From Planctomycetota bacterium (GTDB lineage Bacteria; Planctomycetota; SZUA-567; H5-PLA8), in contig BTVV01000025.1 in assembly GCA_045863855.1 (NCBI GenBank), forward strand, positions 1 to 64,000: a DNA stretch of 64,000 bases. The letters are read 5' to 3'. The notes under the pieces were generated by a model. That model was given only the letters and a program-made list of their open reading frames with translations, was not told where the DNA came from and did not search any database. The translations under genes and the position numbers were made by a program. How positions within the stretch are numbered: the stretch's first letter is position 1; the number at the start of each line of letters is the position of its first letter. Positions 34,327 through 64,000 of this stretch are shown here, one piece after another.

Positions 34327-34631
34327 ACCCGGCCCTCGTGCATAGTTTCAATACACCGAATCATTGTTAATACATTAAAAATATATCAGGGTTTGACACC
34401 CTCTGCTGTTGTGGCTCGAAAGCCACCGCTATTAAGACTTTGCACTATCGCAAGTTATGCGACATTCGGCCGTCGTTTGAACTCAACCGTGCCTAGCGCA
34501 GCTTTAAAGGTGGTCTGCCGCCATCAGCTTGCCCCGACGGGCCACCTCTGCGCTACGCCGAAGGCGCTCTTTCGACCGCTACGGGCGCAGCCAAGTGGCG
34601 GCTTGCATCGAGCAGGCTAAAGTATGTCGCA

Positions 34632-35531: not shown

Positions 35532-35618
35532 GCCCGTCCATTCCGCCGCCACCCTCCGAATCGTATCGTCACCCATGTGTTGGTTAATAGGTGGATACCC
35601 CTACCGGAGGCGAACGCC

Positions 35619-36522: not shown

Positions 36523-39500
36523 TCAGAAACTCAGATCGTCCTTCGAGAGCAGAATCAGGCGGCCGGCTTGGGACTGCGCAGAGACGCGTCCGTGGGTGCC
36601 CATCGGTCCCACGCCCTTGCGGTCCACTTTCTGCAACTCTTTGCCGTCCTTCAGGCCCAGGAGGCGGATCGCGAAATCCTGGTTGTCTTGCGAGAGGATA
36701 ACGGCCTGGCCGTCCGGCAGGATGGATTCGACGTCGATCTGCGGCTTGCCTTGGTAGTCCTTGTACTCGAGTTTGTAGCCGCGCTTCCCTGTTGCCGCTT
36801 CGACACTGGCGAAGTGGAAACCCTGTCCGGCGTGCGGAATAATTCCGTAGGCGATCCCGTTCTGAAAACGGATGGAGTGCATCGGCGCCGGCGCGTTTCC
36901 GTCCTTAGGATTGGAGTTCCAGAGAATTTTCCCGCTGTGAGCGTCGAGCATGTACAGGGCGGGCATGTCGTAATTCTTCTTGAGCACCGCCAGGAAATCT
37001 CCGGATAGGTAGAAGCGTAGGGGCGGTTCCTGGGTCTGATCGTTCTCGTCGATGGGTCGCTTCCACAGCACGCGCAGATTCTTCACATCGATGCAGATGT
37101 AGTACCACGTATCCGTAACGACAATGCGGTCACCGTCGATGGCGCCGGGGACTTCCTCGGGACCGTTCTCGATCAACGGATGCCCATTGAAAAGGGTAAG
37201 GTCGGGCAGCGCCAGACTGCCGATCAGTTTCCCGGTGCCCCGGTAGCGGACGGTGACGTTGAAGGGAAGCTTGCGCACGGAGATGAGCCGGTCGTCCACG
37301 AAATAGGCGGGAAGGTACTGGTCGCCTGCCTCCTGCTCCTGCCAGAGGACCTCGCCCAGTTCCAGCGTGGTCTCGACATCCAGTGCGATGCTCTCGGCCT
37401 GCCCGCAGAGCACGAAGATGCGCCCGCTGCCGGCGGCCGATTTGATCTCGAACCCGCTGGGCGAGCGGAAGCGCCAGCGTTGCTTACCGTCCTTGACGTC
37501 GAAGCAGAAGACATCGTAGAGCCCATGGACGACGACGCGGTCCTTATGCACGTACGCTTTGAAGAAGCCCCACTCGTCGCCCACGTACTTTACCTGATTG
37601 CCGAGAAACCGCAGGTTGGGAGTATCCCAGAGCTTCTTTCCCGCCGTCAGGTCGAAGCAAGAAAGAATGAACTTATTGTCGGTCTTTTGGCGCCTGCGTC
37701 CGCCAACGAACATCAGATGAGGATGTTCCTTTCGCGGATCGCTTCGCGCGAGGGTCAGCCATGCGGTGCCTTCGGCGTCTTCCAAATTGAGCGTGTTTGC
37801 CTGGTACGGCGTCGCGATCGGCAAAGGCTTGGCCGCACCCGCATCGGCCGTGACAGCGGCCTTGAACGGCTCGGGAATCGTCAGCCCACAGAGGCGCGCG
37901 GCGTCGGCGAGTTCCCAGATCCTCCGGCGACTTTCCTCGCCCTCCATCTTAGGCGTTTCGGTGAAGAGCCGGTCCAGGCATTGCTGGGCCGCGCGAGTAC
38001 CCGGGTACTCGCGGAGCAGCACGAGTTGTTCGTCGAGCGACTTATCCTTCAAAACCTCCGTGGCGGCCTTCTCGGCCTCTTCCGCGAAGCGCCCGCCACT
38101 GCGCTGAAACATCAACAGCCGCTGGACGGCAAGATCGCCGGAGCGGACGGTCATCGTTTTGGGCAGGGGCGAGGCGGCGCTGGCGTACAACGGCAAGCCC
38201 TTGCCCATGCGGGCCAGCCCGCCTTTCATTTCGGAAGCGTAAAGCGCCGCGGGTACGCGGGTCTCGGCCTGTGCGAGCATCGCTTCTCCGGTCTTGAAGG
38301 TTTCCTCGCGCTTGAGCGCATTCAGCGGGGAGACCGGGTACTCGTATTGCCCGTAGACGGTCACGAGGTTGCGCAGGCACCGCGCGGCATCGGCGAGATT
38401 GCCCTGCCGCTCGTAAGCTTCGGCGAGAATGAAGATCGTCTCGATCTCCTCAGCCAGGGTGCCGGCCGTCTGGGACATACCCAAGGCGCGCTGGAGTTCC
38501 TGCGGCGGCTGCGCGCGGAAGATGTTCCGCTGCACGAGCCGGCGGTGGATCTGATAAAGCTGCTGATCCAAAAGCGCGCGGAAGTCCAGATCGTTGGGCG
38601 AAGCCTTGGCCAGGCATTCTTCCAGGAGCCCCGCGGCTTCCTCGTCGAGGCCGTCCGCGATGGCCAGTTCGGCGCGGGCGAATAGCGCGTCCGGTCCCTC
38701 GGCCTTGGCCGTCGCGGCCTTCACCGCGTCTCTGTCGAAGACCATCATCACGTCGCGCGGCGTCACACGCAGTTCGAACGGAACGCCGAAGCGCGTAAAC
38801 GTCATCCGTGCGAACGGAAGAAACGGGCCGTGCTCGTTGACGGGCACCGAGTCCGCCACGGTCTTCTTGTACTGTTCGATGAGGTTCAACGTCGCCTTGT
38901 CCTTCTGTGGAATCTTTTCGTGCTCTTCGAGTTCCTTAGGCGCCCTATTGCTGATGATGTCATCGACTTCCGCCAGTAACTGACCCGTGTAGTAACGGCG
39001 TTGATGGACGACTTTCTTGTCTTTCAGCGAGATGCCGGCGAGGTGATACACTTGGCATCCCTTACGCCACCACGGACTGCAATCGGTCCAGGTGGGTAAA
39101 AAGAGCATATCATCGTCGGAGAGGAAAGGGCGCGCGGCGGTCTCGAACCAGCGGCTGTTAATGCTCATTCCAACCGATTTCTGGTAGGCGTACTGCGCCA
39201 TCACCGGTTGCTGATCCTGCAGGATGGGATCGAACTCGCAACGCCAGGTAGTCTTGCCCGTCGCTGGATCGAGCAGGTAGATCGGCGCGCCCTGCTTTCC
39301 CGAAGATCCCGAGAGCGGCCCGTTGCGGCCGTTGGTGCTCAAAACGAGTTCGCCCGCGGAAGTCGTCCCGAGCAGATGGCAAAAGCCCGGTTCGGGCTTG
39401 GTGCGCGCCCACTCCACTTTGCCGGTGCGCCGGTCGAGGCAGAGCATGAAGACGGTGTCGATGGGGAGAATGAAAACGCGCTCGCCTATGAGCAACGGAC

Positions 39501-41277
39501 GCTGGCTATTCCAGAACATGGGATCGTGCGGGCGCACGTAGGCTTCGCCGCCGTGAAGAATACTCAAGTTTCCGAACTGCCGGACGGCGTCGTGTACGCC
39601 GGGGTAGTACGGATAGCGAACGAGCCACTTGATCTGTCCCGAAGCGGCGTCCACGGCCGCGAGTGCGCCGGCGTTGGTGTTGTAGTAGACGGTTCCTTCG
39701 CTGTGGTGCGGCGGGGCAAAGAAGCTGCGGATCTTGTTGCGTCGCTGCTGCACAAGCCCGGCGCTGAATTTGGGCGGTTTAAGCCGGCAGAGTTCGGTGC
39801 GCCACTTGACGCGTCCGGTGGTGCTCTCGAACGCGATCATCCCGTACTCGGTATCGACATGCGTGTCGCCTTCGATGTTGTCCAGCGCGTAACCGGCGAA
39901 GACGGTGCGGTCGCCGCCCGCGGGCGCGCATTCGAATCGCATGCGCGCTTCTTCTTCGTTTGAAGCCGACATCGGGCCGAAGGTCCAGCGTACCTGTCCG
40001 GTGATCTCGTCCAACGCCGCCAGCGATGGGCCGACCTTATATAGCGGCGTGAAGACGAGCCCGTCCTGCACCAGCACGTCTTCCATCGGGTACTGCCGCT
40101 CAAACCAGTTCTGCCAGACCACACGCCCGCCAAGATCGCACAGCCAGCGCTTGGCACCGTTGAGCAGCGACCTGCAATAGATCATGTTCTTGTGACGGTA
40201 GATCACGCTGTGCTCGGTCACGACGGGCTGCGTGTAGACGAATTGGTCGCGGCGCGAGTCGGCTAGTTCTTCCCGCCAGGAGGGCTGCTGCAAAGCGAGC
40301 GGATCGAGCGTGGGCATCCCACGCGCGTAATCGTCGGTGGCAAGGCTGCCGGAACTGGCCCTCTGCACGAACGCCCCCGCGGAAAGCGGCTGAGCATTGC
40401 TCGTCAGGTCGCTCAAGGCCTTCAACTCCCCGGCGCTCAGCTCGCTCTTCGCCGTGGCCTTGCCCGGAGTTCCCGGCTTGTCGCCAAGCATCTTCCGGCA
40501 GTAACCGATTTTGAGCTGAAGGTCGGGCGTCAGGCAGTCGGAGTCCTTGAAGGACGACGTCAGGAGCGAGTACAGTTCCAGAGCTTCGAGGAAGTTGCCC
40601 GCGTCTAGCGCTGCGTTGCCCAATTCGAGGAGCGCGTTGTCGCCATAGGAGGTGGCGAGCATGCTTTCCACGATCTCGGCCATTCCGCTCATGGAGTTGC
40701 GGCGCTTGGCCTGTTCGTACGCTTCCTTGGCCCGCGCGTCGTACAAGGTGCGGTAATAGGCGAGATCGCCGGCGGGAAAATCCAGGAGCCGGCGCTGGCA
40801 GTACCTGCGAATGGGAACGAAGACCCCCTGCTCCGAGACGCGGTACATCACTTCGGGAAACTTGTCGATGACCATCTGGTAGAGCTTCAGGGCGTCGCGG
40901 TGCTTGCCTTCTTTCTCCTTGCGCAACGCCTCCGTGACCAGCGCGTTCGCGCGGTCGGCTTCCACCACTTCGTTAAGCGTGAAAAAGTGCTTCTCGGAGG
41001 AGAGTTTCATCTCCTCTTCGTCCTTGTACCATCCGCCGAACCCGTCGTTGCGATGCCCGCCGGACTTGGGCAGGAAGGTCTGGAAAGCGGCGACGTATCC
41101 TTTGTAGAGGTCGCGATAGGGATCCGGCAGTTCGCCTTCGGCGGACGGCGGATCCTTGGCTTCCTCCTTGGGTTTCGGCGGCTTGGGCGCTTCGCCGGCA
41201 TGCAGCGCCCAAGCACTCACCCCAAACAGCAGGGCCATGATGACGCTCCAGGCGGCCGTATTCGTGCAGCGGCGCAT
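36523..41277 (-). CDS. Large secreted TPR + PQQ-type beta-propeller repeat protein (1584 aa)
   Basis: Signal peptide (IMALLFGVSAWALHA-G); repeated LAALDEITGQVRW / AVDAASGQIKW / CLDRRTGKVEW PQQ motifs in two clusters; helical TPR-like segments; TGATG overlap with the DUF58 gene. Confidence 0.85.
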   Translation of the reverse strand: MRRCTNTAAWSVIMALLFGVSAWALHAGEAPKPPKPKEEAKDPPSAEGELPDPYRDLYKGYVAAFQTFLPKSGGHRNDGFGGWYKDEEEMKLSSEKHFFTLNEVVEADRANALVTEALRKEKEGKHRDALKLYQMVIDKFPEVMYRVSEQGVFVPIRRYCQRRLLDFPAGDLAYYRTLYDARAKEAYEQAKRRNSMSGMAEIVESMLATSYGDNALLELGNAALDAGNFLEALELYSLLTSSFKDSDCLTPDLQLKIGYCRKMLGDKPGTPGKATAKSELSAGELKALSDLTSNAQPLSAGAFVQRASSGSLATDDYARGMPTLDPLALQQPSWREELADSRRDQFVYTQPVVTEHSVIYRHKNMIYCRSLLNGAKRWLCDLGGRVVWQNWFERQYPMEDVLVQDGLVFTPLYKVGPSLAALDEITGQVRWTFGPMSASNEEEARMRFECAPAGGDRTVFAGYALDNIEGDTHVDTEYGMIAFESTTGRVKWRTELCRLKPPKFSAGLVQQRRNKIRSFFAPPHHSEGTVYYNTNAGALAAVDAASGQIKWLVRYPYYPGVHDAVRQFGNLSILHGGEAYVRPHDPMFWNSQRPLLIGERVFILPIDTVFMLCLDRRTGKVEWARTKPEPGFCHLLGTTSAGELVLSTNGRNGPLSGSSGKQGAPIYLLDPATGKTTWRCEFDPILQDQQPVMAQYAYQKSVGMSINSRWFETAARPFLSDDDMLFLPTWTDCSPWWRKGCQVYHLAGISLKDKKVVHQRRYYTGQLLAEVDDIISNRAPKELEEHEKIPQKDKATLNLIEQYKKTVADSVPVNEHGPFLPFARMTFTRFGVPFELRVTPRDVMMVFDRDAVKAATAKAEGPDALFARAELAIADGLDEEAAGLLEECLAKASPNDLDFRALLDQQLYQIHRRLVQRNIFRAQPPQELQRALGMSQTAGTLAEEIETIFILAEAYERQGNLADAARCLRNLVTVYGQYEYPVSPLNALKREETFKTGEAMLAQAETRVPAALYASEMKGGLARMGKGLPLYASAASPLPKTMTVRSGDLAVQRLLMFQRSGGRFAEEAEKAATEVLKDKSLDEQLVLLREYPGTRAAQQCLDRLFTETPKMEGEESRRRIWELADAARLCGLTIPEPFKAAVTADAGAAKPLPIATPYQANTLNLEDAEGTAWLTLARSDPRKEHPHLMFVGGRRRQKTDNKFILSCFDLTAGKKLWDTPNLRFLGNQVKYVGDEWGFFKAYVHKDRVVVHGLYDVFCFDVKDGKQRWRFRSPSGFEIKSAAGSGRIFVLCGQAESIALDVETTLELGEVLWQEQEAGDQYLPAYFVDDRLISVRKLPFNVTVRYRGTGKLIGSLALPDLTLFNGHPLIENGPEEVPGAIDGDRIVVTDTWYYICIDVKNLRVLWKRPIDENDQTQEPPLRFYLSGDFLAVLKKNYDMPALYMLDAHSGKILWNSNPKDGNAPAPMHSIRFQNGIAYGIIPHAGQGFHFASVEAATGKRGYKLEYKDYQGKPQIDVESILPDGQAVILSQDNQDFAIRLLGLKDGKELQKVDRKGVGPMGTHGRVSAQSQAGRLILLSKDDLSF

Positions 41278-42179: not shown

Positions 42180-42181
42180 GA

Positions 42182-43390
42182 TCAAGCCACCATCTGAATG
42201 AGCTGGTCCACGATCTGTTCGCGCGTGACGCCTTCGGCTTCCGCGGCGAAGTTGGGCAGGATGCGGTGACCGATCACGGCTTGGGCGACTTCGCGGACGT
42301 CCTCGAGCTTCGCTTCGTTACGTCCGGCAAGGACCGCGGAGGCCTTGGCGCCCAAGACCAGGTTCTGGCAGGCGCGCGGAGAGGCGCCCCAAGTAAGCCA
42401 CTTCTTGATGAAGTCAGGCGCCTCCTTCTCGCCGGCACGCGTGGCGCGAACGAGCTTCAGGACGTAGCGTTTTACCTGCTCTGTAATCCTCACCTTCCGC
42501 ACGAGTTGCTGGAGGTCGAGAATTTCTTCCTTGCTCAGCACCGGGTCCACCTGCGGCTTATAGCCGGTGGTGGTCATATCGAGGATCTGCATCTCTTCGT
42601 CTTCGGTCGGATAGCCGACGTTGATCTGGAACATGAAACGGTCGAGCTGCGCTTCGGGAAGCGGGTAGGTACCTTCCTGCTCCACCGGATTTTGGGTGGC
42701 AAGCACGAAGAACGGTTCGTCGAGCTTGCGCCGCACGCCGCCAACGGTGACTTGGCGCTCCTGCATGGACTCGAGCAACGAGGCCTGCGTCTTAGGCGGA
42801 GTGCGGTTGATTTCGTCGGCCAGCAGGATGTTGGTGAAAATGGGACCGGACAGGAAGCGGAACTGCCGCTCGCCGGTCGCCTTGTCTTCCTGGATCACCT
42901 CGGTGCCCGTGATGTCCGAAGGCATCAGGTCCGGCGTGAACTGGACGCGCTTGAAATCGAGCGAGAGACAACTAGCCAGCGTACGGACCAACAACGTCTT
43001 GCCCAGACCCGGGACGCCCATCAGCAGGCAATGCCCCTGCGAGAAGAGTCCAAGCATGGTCAGGCGTACGACTTGGTCTTGTCCGACGACGGCCTTTCTT
43101 AACTGGTCCATGATGCGATCGTGCGCGGCTTTCAGATTGCTGATCTTGGACAAATCGTCCGAGGTCCATTCGTCGCCCTCGGAGACGCGCCCGCGCAGCA
43201 CCGCGGGTTGTCCGCTAGGCGGCGAGGCGTGGGCGGTCTCGACCGCCGTTTCGTCGGCGTGTTCGTCCGGCTTGCCCTCCGCCGGGACGGGAATCAGAAT
43301 GTCGCACTTTTTACAGCGGATGCTCTTGCCGGCCGAACTTTCGGCGGCTTTGTAGGCGGTACCGCACTTGGAACAGGTCACTCGAATCAT
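42182..43390 (-). CDS. MoxR-family AAA+ ATPase with an N-terminal zinc ribbon
   Basis: GVPGLGKT, RVQFTPDLMPSDITG, LADEINR, TQNPVEQEGTYPLPEAQLDRF; N-terminal CSKC-x17-CKKC. Confidence 0.95.
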   Translation of the reverse strand: MIRVTCSKCGTAYKAAESSAGKSIRCKKCDILIPVPAEGKPDEHADETAVETAHASPPSGQPAVLRGRVSEGDEWTSDDLSKISNLKAAHDRIMDQLRKAVVGQDQVVRLTMLGLFSQGHCLLMGVPGLGKTLLVRTLASCLSLDFKRVQFTPDLMPSDITGTEVIQEDKATGERQFRFLSGPIFTNILLADEINRTPPKTQASLLESMQERQVTVGGVRRKLDEPFFVLATQNPVEQEGTYPLPEAQLDRFMFQINVGYPTEDEEMQILDMTTTGYKPQVDPVLSKEEILDLQQLVRKVRITEQVKRYVLKLVRATRAGEKEAPDFIKKWLTWGASPRACQNLVLGAKASAVLAGRNEAKLEDVREVAQAVIGHRILPNFAAEAEGVTREQIVDQLIQMVA

Positions 43391-43413
43391 GGTCTTCTCC
43401 TCGGTCTTTCGAT

Positions 43414-44475
43414 TTAGGCTTCGATGCTCTTAATCAACTCGCGCGTCCAGGACGAAACTTCCGGCAACGCGCGCCGCCGGGCATGTTGAAGGATGCGCTC
43501 CACAATGAAGCGCGCGTCCCGTCCTTGGGCTTGCGCCCGGAAATCCACCATCAATCGGTGCGTCAACACCGAAGGCGCGATCTCGATTACGTCCGACTTG
43601 GAGACGTGGGTGCGGCCCCGCGCGAGCGCCAGGACTTTGGCCCCCATCAGAATGGCCTGTGCCGCGCGGGGACTGGCTCCCAACCGGATGTCCGTGGACC
43701 CGTCGCCGCCGCTATCCGCGCCTGGCCGAGTCGCGCGGACGATGGCCAGTGCGAACTGCTTCACGGACGGAACAACCGGCACTTCGCGCGCCAGGTTCTG
43801 CATGGCCACCACGGCTTCGGGGTCCGCAACTTTTTGGGTCTGGATGCGCCGCGTGCCGGTCGTCACGTCCAGCATGCGGCCCTCGGCTTCCTCGTCGGGA
43901 TAGAACTGCTCGATGCAGAGCATAAAGCGGTCGGCTTGGGCTTCGCCCAGCGGCCATACGCCTTCGCTTTCGACCGTGTTCTGCGTGGCCACCAGCACGA
44001 ACGGCTTGGGCAGCCGATAGGTCTGCCCGCCCGTGGTGATCTGACGCTCTTGCATAAGTTCCAGCAGCGCCGACTGCGTGCGCGCGGGGCTGCGGTTGAT
44101 CTCGTCGGCCAGGACAAGGTTGGCGAAGACCGGCCCTTTGAAGAAATGGAAACGCCGCTCGCCTTCGCGGTTTCGTTCCAATACTTCCGCGCCCACGATA
44201 TCGGTGGGCAGCAGGTCGGGCGTGAATTGGATACGCCGGTACTCCAGTCCCAACGCTTCGCCAAGCGTTTTGACCAGCAGCGTCCGTCCGAGACCGGGCA
44301 TGCCCGTCAGGAGCACATGCCCGCCGCCGAAGACGGCCACCAGGAGGTGTTCGACGGCGCGCTCCTGCCCGATCACGACCCGGGCCAGTTCGGCATGGAC
44401 ATTCGCGAAGAGTGTCTGAAACTCCGCGGGTTCCATGGTGCGGCCTCCTTCTTTCGCAGCCGTCGCGTTTGCCAT
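43414..44475 (-). CDS. MoxR-family AAA+ protein with a variant Walker A (GMPGLGRT)
   Basis: RIQFTPDLLPTDIVG, LADEINR, GASPRA; Walker A Lys replaced by Arg. Confidence 0.92.
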   Translation of the reverse strand: MANATAAKEGGRTMEPAEFQTLFANVHAELARVVIGQERAVEHLLVAVFGGGHVLLTGMPGLGRTLLVKTLGEALGLEYRRIQFTPDLLPTDIVGAEVLERNREGERRFHFFKGPVFANLVLADEINRSPARTQSALLELMQERQITTGGQTYRLPKPFVLVATQNTVESEGVWPLGEAQADRFMLCIEQFYPDEEAEGRMLDVTTGTRRIQTQKVADPEAVVAMQNLAREVPVVPSVKQFALAIVRATRPGADSGGDGSTDIRLGASPRAAQAILMGAKVLALARGRTHVSKSDVIEIAPSVLTHRLMVDFRAQAQGRDARFIVERILQHARRRALPEVSSWTRELIKSIEA

Positions 44476-44482
44476 CGCGTGC

Positions 44483-45502
44483 CTACTCCTTGGCGCCGAT
44501 CTTCTCGAACTCGGCCTTCACCTTCTTATCCGTAGGCTTTTCCTGCCATTCGTTGTAATTGAGTTCTTTGCCTTCGAAGAGCTTGTCGAATAGCGGTCGA
44601 GAAGGCGCGAACGCAATCTCGCTTCCCGGCGACCACCGCATGAAGGGAGAACCGTACGCGTGGAAAACCGGAAGGGTGTCGTTGCTCGCGCCACCGCCAA
44701 CTTGATCGGCGATCTCGGCATCGCCGAAGTTCAGGCGCGCGAGACTCAGCATGACTTCTTCGTTGTTCATGAAGCTGTCGCCGTACTTGCCCAAGTGTTT
44801 GTCGTTGAACCAGAGCAAATCGATCTCGCGGGGCTTGGCTTGGCGGTTCCGCAGGTACAGCCCGGAGTGGGTGATGTGAGTGTAGGGTTCGAAGGTCAGG
44901 CGGAGTTCGAATCCGTCGAGCATGTCCCGGATGGCCGGGATCAGTTCACGATAGACCTGCTGCTCGACCGGTGCGGGCCCGGGCGGGAGCGGCTTATCCT
45001 TTTCGGGCGCGGGCAAACCCTTGGGCGCCTTCTGATAAGCGATGGAGACGGACATCTGGCCCGCTTTGGCGCCTTGGTAGGGTCGGCTCTTGTATACGGG
45101 TTCCAGCTTGAAGCGGATGACGTTGTTCTCGGCGTAGTCCAGATAGGCGAGATAGGGCGAGGCGTACTGAAAATTGTTCAAGTCTGGGATCTTATAGATG
45201 GAGACTGCTTCCTTGCCGCCGCGCACCGCCTTGACTTCGTGACTTGCCAGCTGGCAACCCTCGCCGAACTGCTTCGCGCGCAGCTCGGCCTGAGGCTTTT
45301 CCAACAGCGCGTTCATATCGGCGACCGGGCTGCCTTCGAGCTTCATATCGAGGAGGCGATGAGAGAAGCGGACGCGCTCCACGATCGTGGCGCTGCCGTC
45401 CCTCTCAAGCTTCACGCGCGTTTCGATCTGCATGCAGCCCGCGAGCGCGCAAAGCGCCAGCGCCATGCTCGATATGCGCAGAATCATCGGTCTCTTCCGC
45501 AT
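44483..45502 (-). CDS. Hypothetical lipoprotein
   Basis: Lipobox LAGC after a hydrophobic stretch; in the operon. Confidence 0.75.
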   Translation of the reverse strand: MRKRPMILRISSMALALCALAGCMQIETRVKLERDGSATIVERVRFSHRLLDMKLEGSPVADMNALLEKPQAELRAKQFGEGCQLASHEVKAVRGGKEAVSIYKIPDLNNFQYASPYLAYLDYAENNVIRFKLEPVYKSRPYQGAKAGQMSVSIAYQKAPKGLPAPEKDKPLPPGPAPVEQQVYRELIPAIRDMLDGFELRLTFEPYTHITHSGLYLRNRQAKPREIDLLWFNDKHLGKYGDSFMNNEEVMLSLARLNFGDAEIADQVGGGASNDTLPVFHAYGSPFMRWSPGSEIAFAPSRPLFDKLFEGKELNYNEWQEKPTDKKVKAEFEKIGAKE

Positions 45503-45511
45503 CGAAATCTC

Positions 45512-50412: not shown

Positions 50413-50431
50413 GAAACCCTGCGCCTCTCCC

Positions 50432-56126: not shown

Positions 56127-56165
56127 GCGCTCAGCGTCCGTGGTTGAGGTGCGTCATGCGGATGC

Positions 56166-56247
56166 ATACACCGCATCTGGAATGCGCGTACAAAATTCGA
56201 TATCGCGTATAGAGAATTTTTGTATTACGTCTATGTTTATGGTGTAT
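56166..56247. promoter_or_regulatory. Back-to-back pair of TTTTGTA-N16-GGTGTAT elements (divergent promoters or operators)
   Basis: Minus-strand copy 56195->56166 faces the BatA operon; plus-strand copy 56218..56247 faces the GntR gene. Confidence 0.55.
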
Positions 56248-56255
56248 TACGTACA

Positions 56256-57482
56256 ATGAAGAAAGCGGAAGCACCCATTACGAACGCGTCTCGTATACCT
56301 AAACATAGGCAGGTATACGAGTTACTGCTTTCGCGCATCGGCAGTGGCGAATATCCGCCAGGAACCCGACTACCGCCCGAAACCGAACTTCCTTCCCAGT
56401 TGGGCGCCAGCTTACAAACCACACGCTGGGCTTTGCAGGAACTGGTGCGTAGCGGACTCTTGATCCGGCGGCGCGGGGACGGCACCTATGTGGCCGACCA
56501 GCGCGATCCGCCGCTGATCGATGGACGGTCCTTGCGCATGGGATTGCTGCTGCCGGTCGAGGCCTGCCACAAGAATCACTATTACTCCTTTTATGGGCAG
56601 GTTTGCCGGGGCATCCTGGCCGAGTGGGGCGCCGCCGAGGTCGCGCTCTCGTGGCATTCGCGCGGAAAGTCGGGCGCGACTCGGGCGGAAGTGCGCCAAC
56701 CCCGACGCGGGTTGATGGTTGAGGTGCTGGGCGAGCCACGCGATACCGCCGAACGACACCCTCCCTTGGAAGACGTGCTGCGAGGGCGCTTTGACGGGTT
56801 CATTTCCGTGGGCGTCATCGAGGTACCCTTTCTGGAGAAGGTCATTGAGTTGGGCGTACCGACGGTGATCGTGGATTTCCCGAACGCGCCGTTTCACGCC
56901 AAGGCAGACCTCGTTTTCGCCGACGCGGTGGGCGGATACATCGGCGCCGTGCAAGCGCTGGTGGCCCAAGGCGCCAAGCACATCCATTACCTTGGACATC
57001 GCAAGTGGATGCCGAGCAAATCCGGGGAAAACGTCAAACGCTGGCGGAAAACCCGCTCCCAGACGCGGCTGGATCCGGACGGTTTGCTGCGCCTGAACGC
57101 CTACCGCCAAGGCCTCGACCTGGAAGGCATCGCACTGCGTGACGACTGGATTCATTTCGTACAGGTCAACGAACGCCAGTTCGACGATCTGGCCGATCGC
57201 CTGGCTGCCATGGACGAAGCCAATCGGCCCGATGCGCTCGTGAGCCAGGATGTCGGGTCCGCAAACCTGATGATCCAGAAATGCGCGGCGCGGGGCTTGA
57301 CCTTGCTGGGCACCGGAGCGTGTTCCGGCCCGGTCACCGGCCCGGCGCTGCCGATCGTCTTAGACGGCGAAGAGATGGGCCGCGTCGGGGCCGACCTGCT
57401 GCTGGGCCGCTTGCAGCGTCCCCGGCGGCCTTTCCTGAGCGTGGGCGTCCGGATGACCTTCGGGCCGCCCCCGCTCGATTGA
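56256..57482 (+). CDS. GntR-family regulator with a LacI/periplasmic-binding-type effector domain (AraR-like architecture)
   Basis: PKHRQVYELL...YPPGTRLPPETEL...RRRGDGTYV wHTH; C-terminal FDGFI...PTVIVD...ALVAQGAKHIHYLG...PDALV. Confidence 0.85.
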   Translation: MKKAEAPITNASRIPKHRQVYELLLSRIGSGEYPPGTRLPPETELPSQLGASLQTTRWALQELVRSGLLIRRRGDGTYVADQRDPPLIDGRSLRMGLLLPVEACHKNHYYSFYGQVCRGILAEWGAAEVALSWHSRGKSGATRAEVRQPRRGLMVEVLGEPRDTAERHPPLEDVLRGRFDGFISVGVIEVPFLEKVIELGVPTVIVDFPNAPFHAKADLVFADAVGGYIGAVQALVAQGAKHIHYLGHRKWMPSKSGENVKRWRKTRSQTRLDPDGLLRLNAYRQGLDLEGIALRDDWIHFVQVNERQFDDLADRLAAMDEANRPDALVSQDVGSANLMIQKCAARGLTLLGTGACSGPVTGPALPIVLDGEEMGRVGADLLLGRLQRPRRPFLSVGVRMTFGPPPLD

Positions 57483-57501
57483 ACGCAAACTAGCCGGAGG
57501 C

Positions 57502-60462
57502 ATGGCCGTGATCGTACGGTTTCCGTTGCTGCCCCTGCTGGTCCTGTCGGGCGTGGTCTTGGCGGGTTCGCCCGAGGACGAGTGGAAGGTCAAGCGCGAG
57601 CAGGTTTTCGACTTCGAGACACCGCCGTCCCTGGAGCGCGACGGCGACCGGGTGACGATCACCTTCACCGCGCGAGGCTTTTGCGACGCCACGGTGGCCG
57701 TCGAAGGGCCGGACGGGCGGATCCTGCGCCACTTGGCCTGCGGCGTCCTGGGACCCAACGCACCAGAACCGTTCGCGAAAAACAGCCGCGTTCAGAAGCT
57801 GGTCTGGGACGGCAAGGACGAACGCGGAAGGTATGTGGAAGTCGCGGACCAGTGCCGCATACGCGTTTCGCTGGGGCTCAAAGCGCAGTTCGAACGCGCC
57901 CTGCTAAGTGAGCCCAAGCGCCGCATGGGCGCAGGGCTGGGCGTCGGCGTCAGTCCCAGCATCAACCTGCCCGTACCACTGCTGGCGGCCGGTCCGGAAG
58001 GCGTGCTGGTCTTCGAAGGCCACGGACTGGACCATCTGCGACTCTTCGATCACGACGGGAACTACCTGCGCACGATTTACCCGTTCCCAGCCGGCAAAAC
58101 CGATCAGGTGCTGGGCGTGGGCCGGGCGGTCTTTCCCTCCGATGGCGCGGATCTGCCGTTCAAGAACGGTTTTTTGCGCGGAACGCTGCTGACGTCCGGC
58201 GCTTCGGGGCAGCGCAACAGCTATTACGGCTGCATGTTCGGAGCGGGCGCCACGGCGATGGCCGTCCAGGACCGCCGCATCGCGCTGACGCACTATCGCC
58301 TGAACCGTCTAGCCACGGACGGCACCTCCGGCGGCCTCCCGCTGACCGGCCCCGACGTGGGCAAGGACTACCGCGCGCACGGCTCCAACCGCGGCAAGAA
58401 CGACATGAATCTCCAGGCCTTTCCCAACAGCGTGGCCTTCAGCCCCGACGGAAAGTATCTTTACCTCGCGGGATACCAGATTCGCGACGGCGTACCCGGG
58501 CGCAACTTGAACAAGGAATGCCTGCAAGGCGTCCTGCGCCTGGAGTACGGCTCCGACAAGCCGCCGGAGCTTTTCGCCGGCAACATGGACCCGGGAGTCA
58601 AGACCGGGACCGACAACAACAGCTTCAAGGATCCCGTTTCCGTCGCGGTGGATAAGGAAGGGCGCGTCTACATCGCCGACTTTGGGAACGACCGCATCCA
58701 GGTGTACGACACCTCGGCCAAGCATTTGAAGTCCATCAAGGCTTCCAAACCTGCGCGGATCTTCGTGCATCCCAAGACAGGCGAGTTGTACGTATTCTCC
58801 TGGCTCCTGATGACCGAAGCCGTCGCGGGCAAGGACAAACTCTCCGTAGCCAAACCCACGCTGGTGCGCATGGGTTCCTTCCAGAACCCCGAGGTGAAAC
58901 AAAAGCTGGAGCTTCCGTTTAAGCCGACCGCGGGCTGGCAGCCCATGGATTTGTGGGGCGGCTTGGAGCACCAAGTCGCCGTGGATTTCTGGGCCGCGAA
59001 GCCGCGTATCTGGGTTTGCTCCAGTTCGATCGCATACTGGATGCCCGGCACGGGAGAACCCGGCGGCTCCTTGGGCGCGGACAAACAGGGCTCCGAACCT
59101 TGGGACCGAAAAAATGTTCAGATCTACGAAGAGAAAGACGGGAAGCTCGCGCAAGTAGCCGATTTCGGAGCGGATGTGCGCAAGACGCTCCCCCGGAGCG
59201 ATCCGCCCTTCTTCTGGCGGCAGCGGCTCTACGTGAATCCGGCGACGGGAAAACTCTACATCGGCGAAGGCAACCGTACGCGCTGGTACAAGGCCTTTCA
59301 TCAGTTGATCGAATTGGATCCCGCGGACGGCAGCAGCCGGATCGTCGAACTGCCTTTCAGCGCGGAGGACGCAGCCTTCGATCTCGAAGGATTTCTATAT
59401 TTGCGCACGAACACCGCCGTCACGCGCTGGGAACTGTCCAGTATGCGTGAAGTGCCGTTCGACTACGGCGAAGAGAAGAAAGGCATCGGCTTCGCACCCG
59501 ACGCGGGCGGCAAAAAGGGCGATGCGCAGGGGGCGCTGGCGCTTATGGCGCCGCCCTATGTCTCGCATTGGCACAACGGCGGGCTCTGGGTTTCGCCCAA
59601 GGGGCACGTCGTCGTGCCTTGCCTGATCAACAAGGAAGAGAGCCTGGATCCGGAATTTCTCGGCACGCCGGGCGATGTGGTGGCCAATCGCAATCAGGTA
59701 CAGTCGGCTTCCTCGACGCCCCTGTACTGTCCCCCGCTCTTTCCCGGCCGCAAGCGCTGCGGCGAAGTTCACGTCTACGACCAGAAGGGCAAACTGCTTT
59801 ACGAAGACGCGATTCCCGGTATTCGCAAGCTTTTCGCCATCGCCATGGATCGCGACGACAACCTCTATCTGCTTTCCCATGGTGCGCGCGTGCTTTCGGA
59901 CGGCAAGACGTTCAATCCGCGCACCGCGACCTTGATGAAGGTCAAGCCCGGCGTTTCCCGCACGCTGAACGACCACCAAGGCGGCGGCAAGTATCCCAAC
60001 CCGCCGATTCCGCTCAAGGACGAGGACAAGCCCAAGCGCCCCCATGACGTTCGAAACGGCCTCACCGGCGAATGGCTGGTCAACGGCGAATGGATGTACG
60101 GCGGTCTGATCTTTTCGGGCAAAGGCGACACGGATACCGGGGGTGGATGCTCGTGCTGGAACGGCCGCTTCACGCTGGATCTGTTCGGACGCTCGTTCGC
60201 GCCCGAGACGGATCACTACAGCATCGCGGTGCTGGACAGCAACGGGAACCTGCTGCTCCGCATCGGCCAGTACGGGAACCGCGACAGCGCCGGCCCGAAG
60301 AGCGCGCTACCGCTGGGCGGCGACGAAGTGGGACTCTTCCATGCCCAATACGTCGGCGTGGATACCGACCGGCGCCTGTTCGTGGCCGACGGAGGCAACG
60401 CGCGCCTGCTAAGCGTAAAGCTGGACTACCACCAAACCGCGATTCTGCCGTTGAAGCGCTGA
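57502..60462 (+). CDS. Secreted Ig-like + NHL beta-propeller protein, paralog 2 (986 aa)
   Basis: GGAGG RBS; signal peptide; LVWDGKDERG; FKDPVSVAVDKEGRVYIADFGNDRIQVY; GCSCW. Confidence 0.85.
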   Translation: MAVIVRFPLLPLLVLSGVVLAGSPEDEWKVKREQVFDFETPPSLERDGDRVTITFTARGFCDATVAVEGPDGRILRHLACGVLGPNAPEPFAKNSRVQKLVWDGKDERGRYVEVADQCRIRVSLGLKAQFERALLSEPKRRMGAGLGVGVSPSINLPVPLLAAGPEGVLVFEGHGLDHLRLFDHDGNYLRTIYPFPAGKTDQVLGVGRAVFPSDGADLPFKNGFLRGTLLTSGASGQRNSYYGCMFGAGATAMAVQDRRIALTHYRLNRLATDGTSGGLPLTGPDVGKDYRAHGSNRGKNDMNLQAFPNSVAFSPDGKYLYLAGYQIRDGVPGRNLNKECLQGVLRLEYGSDKPPELFAGNMDPGVKTGTDNNSFKDPVSVAVDKEGRVYIADFGNDRIQVYDTSAKHLKSIKASKPARIFVHPKTGELYVFSWLLMTEAVAGKDKLSVAKPTLVRMGSFQNPEVKQKLELPFKPTAGWQPMDLWGGLEHQVAVDFWAAKPRIWVCSSSIAYWMPGTGEPGGSLGADKQGSEPWDRKNVQIYEEKDGKLAQVADFGADVRKTLPRSDPPFFWRQRLYVNPATGKLYIGEGNRTRWYKAFHQLIELDPADGSSRIVELPFSAEDAAFDLEGFLYLRTNTAVTRWELSSMREVPFDYGEEKKGIGFAPDAGGKKGDAQGALALMAPPYVSHWHNGGLWVSPKGHVVVPCLINKEESLDPEFLGTPGDVVANRNQVQSASSTPLYCPPLFPGRKRCGEVHVYDQKGKLLYEDAIPGIRKLFAIAMDRDDNLYLLSHGARVLSDGKTFNPRTATLMKVKPGVSRTLNDHQGGGKYPNPPIPLKDEDKPKRPHDVRNGLTGEWLVNGEWMYGGLIFSGKGDTDTGGGCSCWNGRFTLDLFGRSFAPETDHYSIAVLDSNGNLLLRIGQYGNRDSAGPKSALPLGGDEVGLFHAQYVGVDTDRRLFVADGGNARLLSVKLDYHQTAILPLKR

Positions 60463-60562
60463 AAGGGAGGCCTCAAACCGCTCGAATAGTTCGGTTTCAT
60501 CGAGAAGATCGGTGTATGTAATTAAGATGCATTATTTGTCATAATTACGGAGCCATCTTCCA

Positions 60563-63493
60563 ATGACCGAGAATCATTTCAATCCTGAAAAGTATCGAAG
60601 AATTAGAGGGGCACGCCCTGCGCGTCTGGCGATAGGCCTGGCGCTGCTGGCCGCATGTTCGCTGCGCTCCGCGGAGAACACCGCCGAATATCAAATTAAA
60701 CGCCAGGAAGTATTCGAGTTCACCGAACCGCCCTCGCTCGCCATTCAAGGCGACCGAGTGGAGATTTCCTTCGCCTCCAAAGCGTACTGCGACGCCACCG
60801 TCGCGATTCTGGACCCGGAAGGACACATCGTCCGCCACCTTGCCAGCGGCGTGCTGGGACCCCGCGCCCCCGAACCCTTCCAGCAGAACGCGCTCAAGCA
60901 GACGCTCGTTTGGGACGGGAAAGACGATCAAGGCAAGTACCGCGACGACCGCGAGCGCCTCTCCGTGCGGGTCTCGCTGGGCCTGAAGCCGGCGTTCGAG
61001 AAGCCATTATTCTGGGAGCCGAAAAAGCGCATGGCCTCCAACCCGCCCATCCTGTGTTCGACCGAGCAGGGCGTGTACGTTTACGATGGGTTGTCGGTGG
61101 ATTTCGTGCGCCAATTCGATCATCAGGGCGAGTATGTCCGCACGGTCTATCCATTCCCCGCCGACAAAATCGCATCCATCGAAGGCCTGCATTGGCACGA
61201 ATATCCGCAGGACGGAAAGCGCCTTCCGGTGAAGGGCAACTTCCTGCAGAACACGATGCTGTCCAGCGGTGTCAACGCACTGGATGCCACCTATAAGGCA
61301 CAAAAGCGACAATACGATTCGGTGGTGAGCAGCGGCAACGCGCATTTTGGAATGTACGCCTCGGGCGCCACGGCCATGGCCGTCCGGAAAGGCCGCCTCG
61401 CGCTCGCGTCCATGTCCGTCAATCGCTTCGGCTCTGACGGTTCCGGCGGAGGACTCAAGTTCCGCGGGCCCACGGTCTCCTTTCCCGCACAACTTCGCGC
61501 TATGCACGAACACAAGGGCGGCACCCATCAGATCGGACCGCGCAGCGCGGCACTCAGCCCCGACGGGCGCTGGCTGTATCTGTCCTGCTATTTTTGGAAC
61601 CAGGCATGGAACCAGGACGGACTGCATGGCGTGCTCAAAGTCGACATGGAATCCGACGCCGAGCCCACGGTCTTCGCGGGCAGCTTCAAGCAAAACGATT
61701 CGGGCTCCGAGAACGGCCGCTTCCGCTACGCCACCGGTATCGCCTGCGATGCGCAAGGGCGCGTGTACGTCGGCGACTACATGAACCAGCGCATCCAAGT
61801 CTTTGCCCCCGACGGCAAGCACCTTAAGAGTATCCCCACCCCCTACCCCGTCGACCTGGCGATACACCACAAGACCGGCGAGATCTACGCGTTCTCCTGG
61901 CAGTTGGGCAATTACCAGCTCGTGGCGGAGTGCGATGCCGCTCAGAAGGCGCAAAAGACCCTGCGCATCCCGGCCTTGGCCACGCGACTGGGCCCGTTCG
62001 ACGATCCCAAGCCTCGCGCCACCTTCGACCTCCCCTTCGAACAGTACAATCCGCAGGTGGGGTTCTACATGGGGGTTACGCGCTACGGCCTGCAGTTTCG
62101 CGTGGCGCTCGACTCCTACTCTGAGCCGGCGACGATCTGGATGGTGCCGGGACAGACCGACTCCGAAAACTTCGGCGTGCAGGGCTCGGGTTGGGCGAAA
62201 GGCGGTATCCGCCTTTTGCAGGAGAAGGACGGCAAGCTTGCGGTGATCAAGGACTTCGGCCAGGATGCGTTGAAGTCGGTCAAACGCCTGCGTCCTCCCG
62301 TGTACGGACGACAGCGCCTTTATGTGAATCCCAAGAGCGGCAAGCTCTACGTGGGCGAAGGACAGGAACCCGACGGCACCGGATGCGAAAAGGCATTTCT
62401 CGAACTGGTCGAGATCGATCCCGAATCCGGCGCGATCGAACTCGTGAACCTTCCTTTCGATGCCGAAGAGATGTGTTTCGATCTCGACGGCCACGGTTAC
62501 CTGCGCGGGCGCGCGTCGGTCGGCCGGTTCAATGCCACAACTTGGCAGGAAGTGCCCTGGGACTATGGGGAAGAACTGGACGGCGTGCGTTTTTCGTCCG
62601 GCACGCGCGGCAAAGGCACGCGGCTCCTCTCGGGCCTGCCGGTCTTTCAGGGCATCAACTGGCACATGGGCGGGATGGGCTGTTCACCGCTAGGACATTT
62701 CGCCGTCTCCTGTTACACCGGGAAGGATGTCGAGGACCGCAAGGAGACCAAAGTCGCCAGCGGCGGCAAAGAGTACGCGCCCACGCTATATCCCGGACGC
62801 GTATTCGGCGGAAAGACCGCGTTGATTCACATCTGGGACCGCAAAGGCAAACTTCTGTGCGAAGACGCGGTGCCCGGACTGCCCGACCTTTACGGCTTGG
62901 AAATCGACCGACAGGGCAACCTGTACGTACTCTCTTCGGCCACGCGGCATCTGAACGGCACCCGCTATTTCAACGACATGACCGGCACCTTGATCAAGTT
63001 CAAACCCAAACAGGCCCGCGTGCTGAGCGACTCCGCGAAGGTGACACCCCTGGGTTCGAAGCCCGAGCGGGCGCCGGATTTCAGCTCCGCGATGCAGGGC
63101 GCGGGCTGGGTGGAAGGCGCGGAATGGATGTACGGTGGCGTAGGATACTGCGGCAAGAATCGCGGTGTCGGCTGCGCCTGCTGGAGCACGCGCTTCTGCC
63201 TCGACCTCTACGCGCGCTCCTTCGTCTCCGAACAAGACCGTTACAGCGTCGCGGTGCTGGATACGAACGGGAACCTGATCCTGCGCATGGGCGCTTACGG
63301 CAATGAAGATAGCCGCGGCGCGCGAAGCCCCGTGCCGCTGGGCGGGGACGAGATCGGATTTTTCCTGGGCGCCTACTTGGCTACGCATACCGACAAGCGC
63401 CTGTTCGTCGCCGATGCCGGGAACGCGCGCATCGTCAGCGTGAGTTTGGGATACCATGCCAGCACGACGCTGCCGCTCAAGAAGCAGGACTGA
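60563..63493 (+). CDS. Secreted Ig-like + NHL beta-propeller protein, paralog 3 (976 aa)
   Basis: GGAG RBS; signal peptide (possible LAAC lipobox); LVWDGKDDQG; FRYATGIACDAQGRVYVGDYMNQRIQVF; GCACW. Confidence 0.85.
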   Translation: MTENHFNPEKYRRIRGARPARLAIGLALLAACSLRSAENTAEYQIKRQEVFEFTEPPSLAIQGDRVEISFASKAYCDATVAILDPEGHIVRHLASGVLGPRAPEPFQQNALKQTLVWDGKDDQGKYRDDRERLSVRVSLGLKPAFEKPLFWEPKKRMASNPPILCSTEQGVYVYDGLSVDFVRQFDHQGEYVRTVYPFPADKIASIEGLHWHEYPQDGKRLPVKGNFLQNTMLSSGVNALDATYKAQKRQYDSVVSSGNAHFGMYASGATAMAVRKGRLALASMSVNRFGSDGSGGGLKFRGPTVSFPAQLRAMHEHKGGTHQIGPRSAALSPDGRWLYLSCYFWNQAWNQDGLHGVLKVDMESDAEPTVFAGSFKQNDSGSENGRFRYATGIACDAQGRVYVGDYMNQRIQVFAPDGKHLKSIPTPYPVDLAIHHKTGEIYAFSWQLGNYQLVAECDAAQKAQKTLRIPALATRLGPFDDPKPRATFDLPFEQYNPQVGFYMGVTRYGLQFRVALDSYSEPATIWMVPGQTDSENFGVQGSGWAKGGIRLLQEKDGKLAVIKDFGQDALKSVKRLRPPVYGRQRLYVNPKSGKLYVGEGQEPDGTGCEKAFLELVEIDPESGAIELVNLPFDAEEMCFDLDGHGYLRGRASVGRFNATTWQEVPWDYGEELDGVRFSSGTRGKGTRLLSGLPVFQGINWHMGGMGCSPLGHFAVSCYTGKDVEDRKETKVASGGKEYAPTLYPGRVFGGKTALIHIWDRKGKLLCEDAVPGLPDLYGLEIDRQGNLYVLSSATRHLNGTRYFNDMTGTLIKFKPKQARVLSDSAKVTPLGSKPERAPDFSSAMQGAGWVEGAEWMYGGVGYCGKNRGVGCACWSTRFCLDLYARSFVSEQDRYSVAVLDTNGNLILRMGAYGNEDSRGARSPVPLGGDEIGFFLGAYLATHTDKRLFVADAGNARIVSVSLGYHASTTLPLKKQD

Positions 63494-63521
63494 AAATTAG
63501 AATCGCCCGCAGGAGTTCCGC

Positions 63522-64000
63522 ATGCATCTCGCCCGCCTCCCTGCTTCGCTTCACGCCCCGATCCTTGCCGGGGCCATCCTGTGCGCGGTGTCCGCCGGTT
63601 TCACGGCAGGAGCCGAGGTGAAGGAACTGGCGGTCAAGCGCCAGGAGGTTTTCGAGTTCGTATCCAAGCCCGTGCTTGAGCGTAGCGGCGATCACGTGGA
63701 CATCCGCTTCGAGGTCAAAGCCGCATGCGATGCGACGGTCGCCATCGAGAACGCGGAAGGGCGGATCGTCCGGCACTTCGCGTCTGGCGTCTTAGGCCCG
63801 CATGCGCCCGAACCCTTTCAGAAAGACTCGCTGAAACAGAATCTGCGCTGGGACGGCAAGGACGACGCCGGTCAATACGTGGACCGCAAGTCCCAATGCA
63901 AGGTCCGCGTCTCGCTGGGCCTTAAGGCGAGTCTGGACCGCGTGATGCTCTGGGACGCCAAGCGCCGCTACGGGCGGCAGACGCCTATCCTAAAGGCGGT
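63522..64000 (+). CDS. Secreted Ig-like + NHL beta-propeller protein, paralog 4 (5' part; runs off the window; absent from the ORF track)
   Basis: Hand translation from ATG 63522 (AGGAG RBS): ...VKRQEVFEF...ACDATVAIE...RIVRHFASGVLGPHAPEPFQ...WDGKDDAGQY...VRVSLGLK. Confidence 0.85.
   Translation, partial: MHLARLPASLHAPILAGAILCAVSAGFTAGAEVKELAVKRQEVFEFVSKPVLERSGDHVDIRFEVKAACDATVAIENAEGRIVRHFASGVLGPHAPEPFQKDSLKQNLRWDGKDDAGQYVDRKSQCKVRVSLGLKASLDRVMLWDAKRRYGRQTPILKA

Follow-up and report, generated by a model that had tools for sequence, protein, structure and literature searches.

What does a Bat-type operon act upon? Such operons, which join MoxR ATPases to DUF58 and other VWA proteins, are presented in PMC5700661 as widespread and without an agreed function, and the piece usually missing is the client. 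We examined this question at a locus of a Planctomycetota bacterium (assembly GCA_045863855.1, contig BTVV01000025.1, positions 1 to 64 000; this whole stretch of 64 000 nucleotides is called the window), where a ten-gene operon encoding two MoxR and three VWA proteins lies between genes for double-propeller proteins that carry secretion signals and share a CxC motif. Here the partners are named, co-inherited and amplified. Comparison with related genomes shows this subtype to be a real, apparently undescribed variant of Bat-type operons, with an unusually clean genetic link to its candidate partners. The explanation that we tentatively favour is that a Bat-type MoxR/VWA subtype has been inherited with three amplified partner families, one ATP-driven inner-membrane core assembling or powering interchangeable periplasmic heads. 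With named partners and an ATPase carrying a conserved Lys-to-Arg change, the open question becomes one of specific pull-down, ATPase and ligand-binding experiments. Tractability is limited, all the named homologues seen being metagenome-assembled genome (MAG) or metagenome records. Genomes, contigs and loci are designated below by G-, C- and L-numbers; the window is contig C25 of the source genome G000 (6.9 Mb, 94% complete).

Inheritance of the propellers with the operon subtype

Among 41 relatives, the full-length propeller (E<1e-200), the 1584-residue protein that closes the operon, hereafter the giant (E<1e-100), and the lipoprotein (E<1e-70) were found in the same nine genomes. MoxR1 was present in eight of the nine, and the ninth, G007, has an operon cut by a contig end. 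The search was then scaled to 401 Planctomycetota genomes, mostly incomplete MAGs in which four to five candidates per genome were scored and in which kin are not independent. At E<=1e-20 the C-terminal half of the propeller was detected in 18 of them and the lipoprotein profile in 16, all within the 18 propeller carriers (16/16 lipoprotein carriers have the propeller, and 16/18 propeller carriers the lipoprotein). The two propeller carriers without lipoprotein (G024, G212) have only ~1e-21 matches from a more distant subfamily; nine further genomes gave weak, mostly N-terminal lipoprotein matches (1e-9 to 1e-16) without propellers. MoxR1 was found in 12/401 genomes, all of them propeller carriers. 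Within each of four genera (g1, g10, g14 and g17), members with and members without the propeller differ in the same way in the lipoprotein. The carriers total 21 genomes from nine families; in a same-genus relative the proteins are 96–98% identical, and the lipoprotein also occurs in two Pirellulaceae MAGs. A preliminary description of the locus, made from its sequence alone, had assigned the propeller family to this operon subtype, and the two are not independently distributed among the 41 and the 401 genomes.

Gene order points in the same direction. Six other genomes have propeller genes within the operon, and the sites they occupy number at least three: between the toroid and stalk genes (G015, G019 and contig C21 of G018), between the lipoprotein and MoxR1 genes (G196), twice around the giant gene (G060, C69) and after the NPCBM gene (G114, C27). 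Satellite cassettes made only of propeller, lipoprotein and giant genes, without the core, were seen in G007 (C88), G138 (C36), G018 (C279), G114 (C61) and G056 (C29). The copy numbers for G007 are at least 20 propellers, at least seven giants and four lipoproteins with one core seen, and those for the window's genome are five propellers, one giant, one lipoprotein and one core. The core is thus mostly single, whereas the propeller, lipoprotein and giant families are amplified. That the lipoprotein and the giant have multiplied together with the propellers makes the two resemble partner subunits more than a chaperone that serves a single client. Two operon types coexist in each of G018 and G060, the more divergent propellers standing beside the more divergent operon. 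Mantel correlations between linked propellers and their partners were high for the giant (rho 0.87, 13 loci), the lipoprotein (0.74, 12 loci), the stalk (0.84, 11 loci), the NPCBM protein (0.89, 10 loci) and the toroid (0.93, nine loci), with p<0.001 for all five. Judged by gene order, the link between propellers and operon appears to be functional and not accidental.

Gene content of the operon

The minus-strand run of ten genes extends from 56126 down to 36523 with successive junctions of -4, -19, +19, -4, +9, +7, +23, +2 and -1 bp (Table 1), which bears out the same-strand operon with gaps of at most 23 bp proposed from the sequence. Most of the assigned contents hold as well: Pfam confirms the two MoxR proteins, the toroid, the NPCBM protein and the 1584-residue TPR/PQQ giant, the lipoprotein has a LAGC lipobox, and the residues of the metal-ion-dependent adhesion site (MIDAS) are invariant in the orthologues of all three VWA proteins. 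The BatA-type protein begins with two hydrophobic helices that flank a basic loop; a VWA, an immunoglobulin-like (Ig) and a GATase-like domain follow, and a C-terminal helix ends it. Its VWA domain carries a DxTxS variant of the MIDAS with D196 (6/6 orthologues), VWA2 carries DxSxS with D201 (7/7) and the DUF58 protein DxSxS/T/D (11/11). Hydropathy places hydrophobic helices at the N- and C-terminus of both BatA and VWA2 and detects none in MoxR1, MoxR2 and the DUF58 protein, which is likely a cytoplasmic MoxR adaptor. Both MoxRs match AAA_3 (5.9e-64 and 2.1e-56), with DUF58 adjacent. BatD, which beside BatA/B and TPR genes defines the strict Bacteroides Bat operon, was not matched by Pfam (E<=0.01) in any of the ten genes; by gene content the operon is a Bat-type MoxR-proper operon.

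Table 1. Positions of the operon, its control region and the flanking regulator and propeller genes in the window
Feature	Position	Strand	Basis
CxC double-propeller paralogue 4, far side of operon	30967..33801	-	Pfam, homology
Giant, 1584-aa signal-peptide protein with TPR and PQQ-type propeller, multicopy in several genomes	36523..41277	-	Pfam PQQ_2/TPR; ATG at 41277
DUF58 VWA protein, full MIDAS, no hydrophobic helix	41277..42179	-	Pfam DUF58 1.1e-42
MoxR2, canonical AAA_3 ATPase, Cys-rich zinc-ribbon-like N-terminus	42182..43390	-	Pfam; alignment
MoxR1, AAA_3 ATPase, Walker A Lys to Arg, subtype marker	43414..44475	-	Orthologue alignment
Lipoprotein, LppM-like predicted fold, subtype marker, amplified in many genomes	44483..45502	-	Lipobox; AlphaFold; fold matches
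Core protein with signal peptide and C-terminal NPCBM/NEW2 module (putatively carbohydrate-binding)	45512..46732	-	Pfam 1.8e-35
Stalk, 1227-aa membrane-anchored Ig and long helical stalk (DUF4175-like), core	46729..50412	-	Three hydrophobic helices
Alpha/alpha toroid of squalene-cyclase type, N-terminal hydrophobic leader, core	50432..51658	-	Pfam squalene-cyclase/prenyltransferase
VWA2, second membrane VWA protein, core	51640..53982	-	Pfam VWA and GATase1-like; canonical MIDAS
BatA-type inner-membrane protein, core	53979..56126	-	Pfam BatA 1.3e-16, VWA_2; TIGR02226; hydropathy; alignment
Divergent intergenic region, 129 bp, AT-rich near GntR start, 10-bp direct repeat, identical in G002	56127..56255		
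Regulator, GntR helix-turn-helix and LacI-type sugar-binding domain	56256..57482	+	Pfam GntR, Peripla_BP_3
CxC double-propeller paralogue 1, with signal peptide, FlgD-like Ig domain, NHL propeller and a further propeller-like domain	57502..60462	+	Pfam, alignment
CxC double-propeller paralogue 2 (modelled)	60563..63493	+	AlphaFold pLDDT 92.4, pTM 0.94
CxC double-propeller paralogue 3	63522..64000, on past the window to contig end 66276	+	Complete (974 aa) in G002

The start codon of the toroid is uncertain within 51616–51658. The cyclase motif DxDD is not present in it, the aligned position reading DxSVT in the consensus of ten orthologues. We discarded the idea that the toroid prenylates the propeller CxC: this motif is internal, and no conserved Cys was seen in the toroid where the zinc motif of prenyltransferases would lie. 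The DUF4175-like coiled coil of the preliminary description holds only indirectly for the stalk protein, since the window's copy has no DUF4175 match and one of its 12 orthologues does (1.2e-9); Big_7 was detected in eight of the 12. In the lipoprotein family the Gly-Cys of the lipobox is invariant (40/40). The AlphaFold model of the window's lipoprotein (pLDDT 90.8) had LppM as its best VIA match (Z 6.9, rmsd 4.3, 151 aligned residues), and comparison with the LppM cluster in the Atlas structure comparison gave TM 0.43/0.63. The sequence has no Pfam match to the LppM family PF21946 and Foldseek returned no clear PDB match; the predicted likeness to LppM is modest. A plasmid homologue was searched for and none was found. 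Weak N-terminal matches to the LppM-like lipoprotein outside the subtype were seen in G004 (C68, L173), G032 (C3) and eight other genomes. In G004 the gene directly precedes a canonical MoxR gene, an arrangement that suggests where the subtype lipoprotein came from.

A conserved Walker A change in one of two MoxR ATPases

The Walker A Lys is replaced by Arg in MoxR1 of all 15 aligned orthologues and of five further genomes (20/20), with Walker B and the downstream Arg residues kept. MoxR2 retains the Lys in 9/9 aligned orthologues and in five further copies, as do the other MoxRs of the window's genome in all 15 cases that parsed (two did not parse). In P-loop ATPases this Lys-to-Arg change permits ATP binding but cuts hydrolysis, and on this ground MoxR1 would likely be an attenuated or regulatory member in a mixed ring. 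The twin ATPases had been put forward as a point of novelty, and the substitution strengthens it. A second tandem MoxR pair, both with the canonical Walker A Lys, occurs in the same genome (C190:6168-8474); it is the Lys-to-Arg change, and not the pairing as such, that is unique. The N-terminal zinc-ribbon-like segment of MoxR2, with two CxxC pairs and weak Pfam matches, aligns in several orthologues, others aligning only from about residue 70.

The CxC propeller family

The CxC propellers form a family of signal-peptide proteins of roughly 950 aa. Their array headed by the regulator (genes at 57502, 60563 and 63522) and the paralogue beyond the far side of the operon were confirmed as first described; a fifth paralogue lies on contig C237, and the five are mutually 42–46% identical. 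The CxC is invariant in 113/113 sequences and is also kept in distant subfamilies; the W that follows it is variable, so that of the proposed CxCW motif the CxC stands and the W does not. The AlphaFold model is confident and comprises a FlgD-like Ig domain (~1–112; the name FlgD_ig is taken from the annotation of homologues), an NHL propeller (115–530) that the C-terminal strand closes, and a further domain (540–915), all-beta and propeller-like. The best VIA match was the NHL propeller of TRIM2 (Z 22.0, rmsd 3.3, 247 aligned, residues 115–519). Good fold matches are confined to this first propeller, the best whole-protein hits of Foldseek being weak tandem propellers (query TM <=0.36). Other structural neighbours include Ca/Zn propeller enzymes (PAL, gluconolactonases), teneurin and an archaeal surface-layer protein (Ig and NHL). 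For the whole protein no solved relative was found, the sequence giving NHL repeats and the fold single-propeller matches, and no catalytic family was matched beyond NHL/SGL repeats. Conservation is highest in the Ig domain and in the CxC-bearing C-terminal 120 residues, and loops at residues 201–220, 261–280, 401–520 and 681–700 are hypervariable (entropy 2.3–3.1 bits). The operon-linked clade alone conserves an acidic motif (E626, D630-Y631-G632), which is a lead only, the alignment having included two wrong-frame open reading frames. Fused forms of 1709–4880 aa were sought and none was found, which is weak evidence.

A shorter subfamily (~860 aa) with FlgD-Ig and double propeller keeps the CxC (L102–L105 in G028, G024 and G004; C70:10470-13052 in G000). 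Its genes stand in tandem arrays amid genes of the GH123, heparinase and PcRGLX-like types. The subfamily occurs where the operon subtype was not found and is itself an uncharacterised, expanded family. In G228 (C14, L130) propellers are interleaved with large PQQ_2 proteins (1740 aa) that have no match to the window's giant at E<=1e-8 and are possibly a second adaptor family.

Regulation and the link to carbohydrates

The operon and the regulator gene diverge from a common intergenic region, which had been described as a symmetric control region. The symmetry proved weak: the score of the inverted repeat was reached by 30/150 local shuffles, and a symmetric operator is not supported. The one conspicuous feature is the 10-bp direct repeat (56221 and 56243), matched by 8/1000 shuffles; it was not seen by eye upstream of the other GntR paralogues, and no sigma-70 promoter match was found. 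Sharing of this region between operon and regulator is true at the window and is not general. Cassettes of GntR and propeller genes occur in G005, G007, G004 and G047, and no GntR orthologue lies beside BatA in the operons of G005, G019, G021, G026, G060 and G138. The regulator travels with the propellers, and the shared control is therefore local to this genus. Contigs from RNA libraries of close relatives (four runs) touch both the operon and the propeller array, with every one of the 30 bins of each stretch touched in runs X2 and X4; such contigs show neither strand, level nor co-expression, and carry-over of DNA is possible. Four regulator paralogues (40–45% identity) occur elsewhere in the genome (C9:90893, C13:49737, C70:7034 and C81:24516), each heading a run of signal-peptide proteins that include Kelch-type propellers and the shorter CxC subfamily. 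The GntR/LacI paralogues are thus a regulator family dedicated to secreted propeller arrays.

The link of the system to carbohydrates is moderate. The core includes the NPCBM protein, CBM9 is fused to three propellers, in G007 (C88, beside a giant and a lipoprotein), in G212 and on contig C9 of the window's genome, and PA14 is fused to two giants. Regulators of the GntR/LacI type lie within two genes of 6/20 unselected close-clade loci and of 0/19 controls (one-sided p 0.012); in this comparison the two nearest non-system genes on each side were taken, the controls came from the same genomes and families were classified by hand. Among the distant subfamilies, 9/12 loci have, no more than two genes away, a gene of the PL8, PcRGLX-like, GH123, heparinase, GH42-like or pectate-lyase type, the proteins having been picked by eye.

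Relation to known MoxR-VWA systems

The frame of the operon is ordinary in this genome, which encodes 19 MoxR and 15 DUF58 homologues; besides this operon it has at least seven MoxR-DUF58-BatA runs, several of which include a stalk, toroid or giant gene. These runs agree with the preliminary remark that related operons are common in planctomycetes, and the novelty must lie in what this copy adds. With the Bat (Bacteroides aerotolerance) operons, Borrelia bb0170–bb0176 and Rhizobium cmdA–D (RL3499–RL3502), as described in PMC5700661, it has in common a MoxR AAA_3 ATPase, DUF58, BatA with its double helix and VWA domain, a second membrane VWA protein and a TPR partner. To these it adds the toroid, the stalk, the NPCBM protein, the LppM-like lipoprotein, a second MoxR with the Lys-to-Arg change and the three amplified families. 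Generic planctomycete operons of the type MoxR-DUF58-BatA-VWA-stalk(-toroid-propeller), of which the papers found give no description, have the same core, whereas the generic runs of this genome have no match to the subtype lipoprotein or to the close-clade propellers, and their parsed MoxRs keep the Walker A Lys.

In the mxaRSACKL system, as reported in PMC12276312, incorporation of Ca2+ into the periplasmic methanol dehydrogenase requires MxaR, a MoxR, together with three VWA proteins (MxaS, MxaC and MxaL). The likeness lies in a MoxR with three VWA proteins (here a DUF58-type protein and two more) linked to a gene for a periplasmic client. Methanol dehydrogenase is itself a propeller; it is the one known enzyme client of that system, whereas the window system has many paralogous non-PQQ double propellers, amplified lipoprotein and giant families and a far larger scaffold. 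The MoxR-vWA beta-propeller ternary conflict systems, which occur in planctomycetes, are described as having the propeller strictly fused on the C-terminal side of the vWA domain (Kaur et al. 2020, PMC7159879). They and the Esr system resemble the locus in combining MoxR, vWA and variable TPR or propeller components. Unlike the ternary systems, none of the three VWA proteins here carries a propeller (they have Ig/GATase-like or no C-terminal domains) and the MoxRs are of the AAA_3 type; the Ser/Thr kinase, phosphatase, FHA and Esx output of Esr are absent from the window's genes. The Bacteroides thetaiotaomicron structure PDB 3hrp has an Ig domain and a six-bladed NHL propeller in common with the propellers at the level of fold only (Z 17.9, rmsd 3.6, 267 aligned, 12% identity), the window's proteins adding a second propeller-like domain and the CxC. 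We found no description of the subtype, of the propeller family or of a Lys-to-Arg MoxR partner in the open-access literature, and the supplements of PMC7159879 and PMC8195603 could list such loci.

Proposed mechanism and rival explanations

In the explanation that we favour, MoxR2 and the attenuated MoxR1 would form a mixed cytoplasmic ring with the DUF58 adaptor, as NorQ does with NorD. The latter pair is reported to insert iron into cNOR, NorQ acting through the VWA domain of NorD on surface carboxylates of the client (10.1101/2022.11.16.516607). The DUF58 protein would grip the conserved cytoplasmic loop of BatA, and force would cross the membrane to the two periplasmic VWA domains. In the Borrelia homologue BB0173 the VWA domain was mapped experimentally to the periplasm (PMC5700661); by this topology the VWA domain of BatA faces the periplasm and the power of ATP must cross the membrane. 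Stalk, toroid and NPCBM protein would make up a periplasmic scaffold. The variable head would consist of propeller, lipoprotein and giant, orphan propeller genes elsewhere would feed the one core, and the GntR/LacI-type regulators would choose the propeller made. Scattered S-components that share one energy-coupling factor (ECF) module offer an analogy for the orphan propellers, ECF and TonB systems being cases of one motor with many receptors; no homology to parts of either was seen in the window system. The heads would probably engage glycans. A bolder form, which we regard as unlikely, is an ATP-powered, TonB-independent glycan-capture apparatus of Planctomycetota-Verrucomicrobiota-Chlamydiota (PVC) bacteria, in which the mixed MoxR ring would pull on the periplasmic VWA domains and serve tens of orphan, sugar-induced propeller receptors on lipoprotein-giant adaptors. 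If true, this form would add a new kind of envelope energiser, and for the uptake of polysaccharides by planctomycetes it would offer a molecular candidate. Planctomycetes can internalise polysaccharides by cellular mechanisms described as unexplored in PMC11685898, and the window's 6.9-Mb genome has only six matches to TonB-dependent receptors; a one-core-many-heads ATP machine is therefore a candidate worth testing.

Several observations weigh against one core serving many glycan-binding heads. Mirror trees are expected of any linked genes, and linkage alone gives part of the Mantel signal; the correlation between propellers and MoxR1 was not significant (rho 0.42, p 0.13, seven loci). In the three genomes of the sister clade (G056, G114 and G418) no Lys-to-Arg MoxR1 was found; their operon loci are cut by contig ends. 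Genomes of the shorter CxC subfamily (G024, G028, G004, G012 and G212) have no strong lipoprotein or MoxR1 match, so not all CxC propellers need this operon. As to glycans, all six regulator-flanked loci come from two genomes of one family, carbohydrate-degrading families make up 4/61 genes beside the 20 close-clade loci and 5/69 genes beside the 19 control loci, and two of the three CBM9 fusions, like the clearest GH123/heparinase neighbourhoods, belong to the shorter subfamily. The attack on polysaccharides suggested earlier is accordingly favoured by the fusions and not by the neighbourhood control. No outer-membrane channel gene was recognised by Pfam and family scans of the window's genes, which leaves uptake across the outer membrane unexplained.

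The main rival is a maturase, an enlarged mxaRSACKL-like machine that would insert a metal or cofactor into the propellers, which would then be free periplasmic metalloenzymes with the CxC in the site. The precedents of Ca2+ incorporation by MxaR with its VWA proteins (PMC12276312) and of iron insertion by NorQ/NorD (10.1101/2022.11.16.516607) speak for it, as do the invariance of the CxC (113/113, and in distant subfamilies), the acidic motif of the operon-linked clade, a lead only, and the Ca/Zn propeller enzymes among the structural neighbours. However, a chaperone has no need of amplification, whereas the lipoprotein and the giant have multiplied in step with the propellers; CxC propellers also occur in genomes where the subtype was not found, and no catalytic family was matched beyond the NHL/SGL repeats. 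We hold a maturase to be somewhat unlikely; it accounts less well for a lipoprotein and a giant amplified in parallel. The variability of the propellers, with their hypervariable loops, many paralogues and patchy distribution, would suit a system of threat sensing or defence in which propellers sense foreign cells or glycans and signal through MoxR-VWA, like Esr or the ternary conflict systems. Esr of Actinomycetota is reported to couple sequence-diverse surface beta-propellers to MoxR and vWA (PMC13622651), Arc2 of Pseudomonas is presented as a MoxR/VWA defence cluster (PMC8926400) and conflict systems make use of NPCBM (PMC8195603). Yet no kinase, FHA, effector or nuclease was recognised among the window's ten genes or the mapped operon copies, PADLOC gives one weak AAA match only, the MoxRs score 46–50 bits as bpMoxR versus 190–214 bits as AAA_3, and the associated regulators have sugar-binding folds. 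Defence is quite unlikely on this evidence.

A structural role, in which the VWA heterodimer and the propellers would form an ATP-switched, integrin-type adhesin or a trans-periplasmic strut with propellers as variable tips, appears very unlikely. The pairing of VWA-Ig-membrane proteins with Ig-propeller partners recalls it, as do the Ig and NHL structural neighbours (teneurin and the archaeal surface-layer protein) and the altered envelope and shape of Rhizobium cmdA–D mutants, as summarised in PMC5700661; no route to the cell surface was identified, and since the genome has several generic operons of this kind and same-genus relatives live without this subtype, the subtype is not needed for basic envelope integrity. 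That operon and propellers are mere passengers on one mobile island, with no shared function, is extremely unlikely. The composition of the region (GC 0.624 across 36500-64000 versus 0.658 in the left part of the window), its position downstream of a tRNA-Thr gene and its absence from the same-genus genome G001 would agree with such hitch-hiking, but no empty site was seen in G001 and the link spans nine families down to 30% identity, several insertion positions in the operon and many rearranged cassettes. Hitch-hiking is largely refuted by the in-operon insertions.

Neighbouring genes and other observations

The tRNA-Thr(CGT) gene lies at 30568-30642 (+), just beyond the far propeller paralogue. 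On G002 contig C3, at ~927.7 kb (L189), a tRNA-Lys gene and then phage- or element-like genes follow ~3 kb past the other end of the array. A tRNA-associated island could not be shown, the G001 neighbourhood being different and having no tRNA there. On contig C9 of the window's genome (53734-69380, from L181 onwards), the genes for a beta-helix protein and for a propeller fused to CBM9 are divergent from a different, compact MoxR-DUF58 operon, which by eye looks like the classical Bat type. Within the window, positions 33805-36476 hold a pair of AraC and PhyH-dioxygenase genes and, immediately upstream of the far propeller gene, a degenerate gene for a SIS-domain protein; AraC/PhyH-like pairs recur in this genome. 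Further to the left (26662-29114), an extracytoplasmic function sigma factor gene and a large membrane anti-sigma-like gene are conserved with an ABC ATPase gene in G001.

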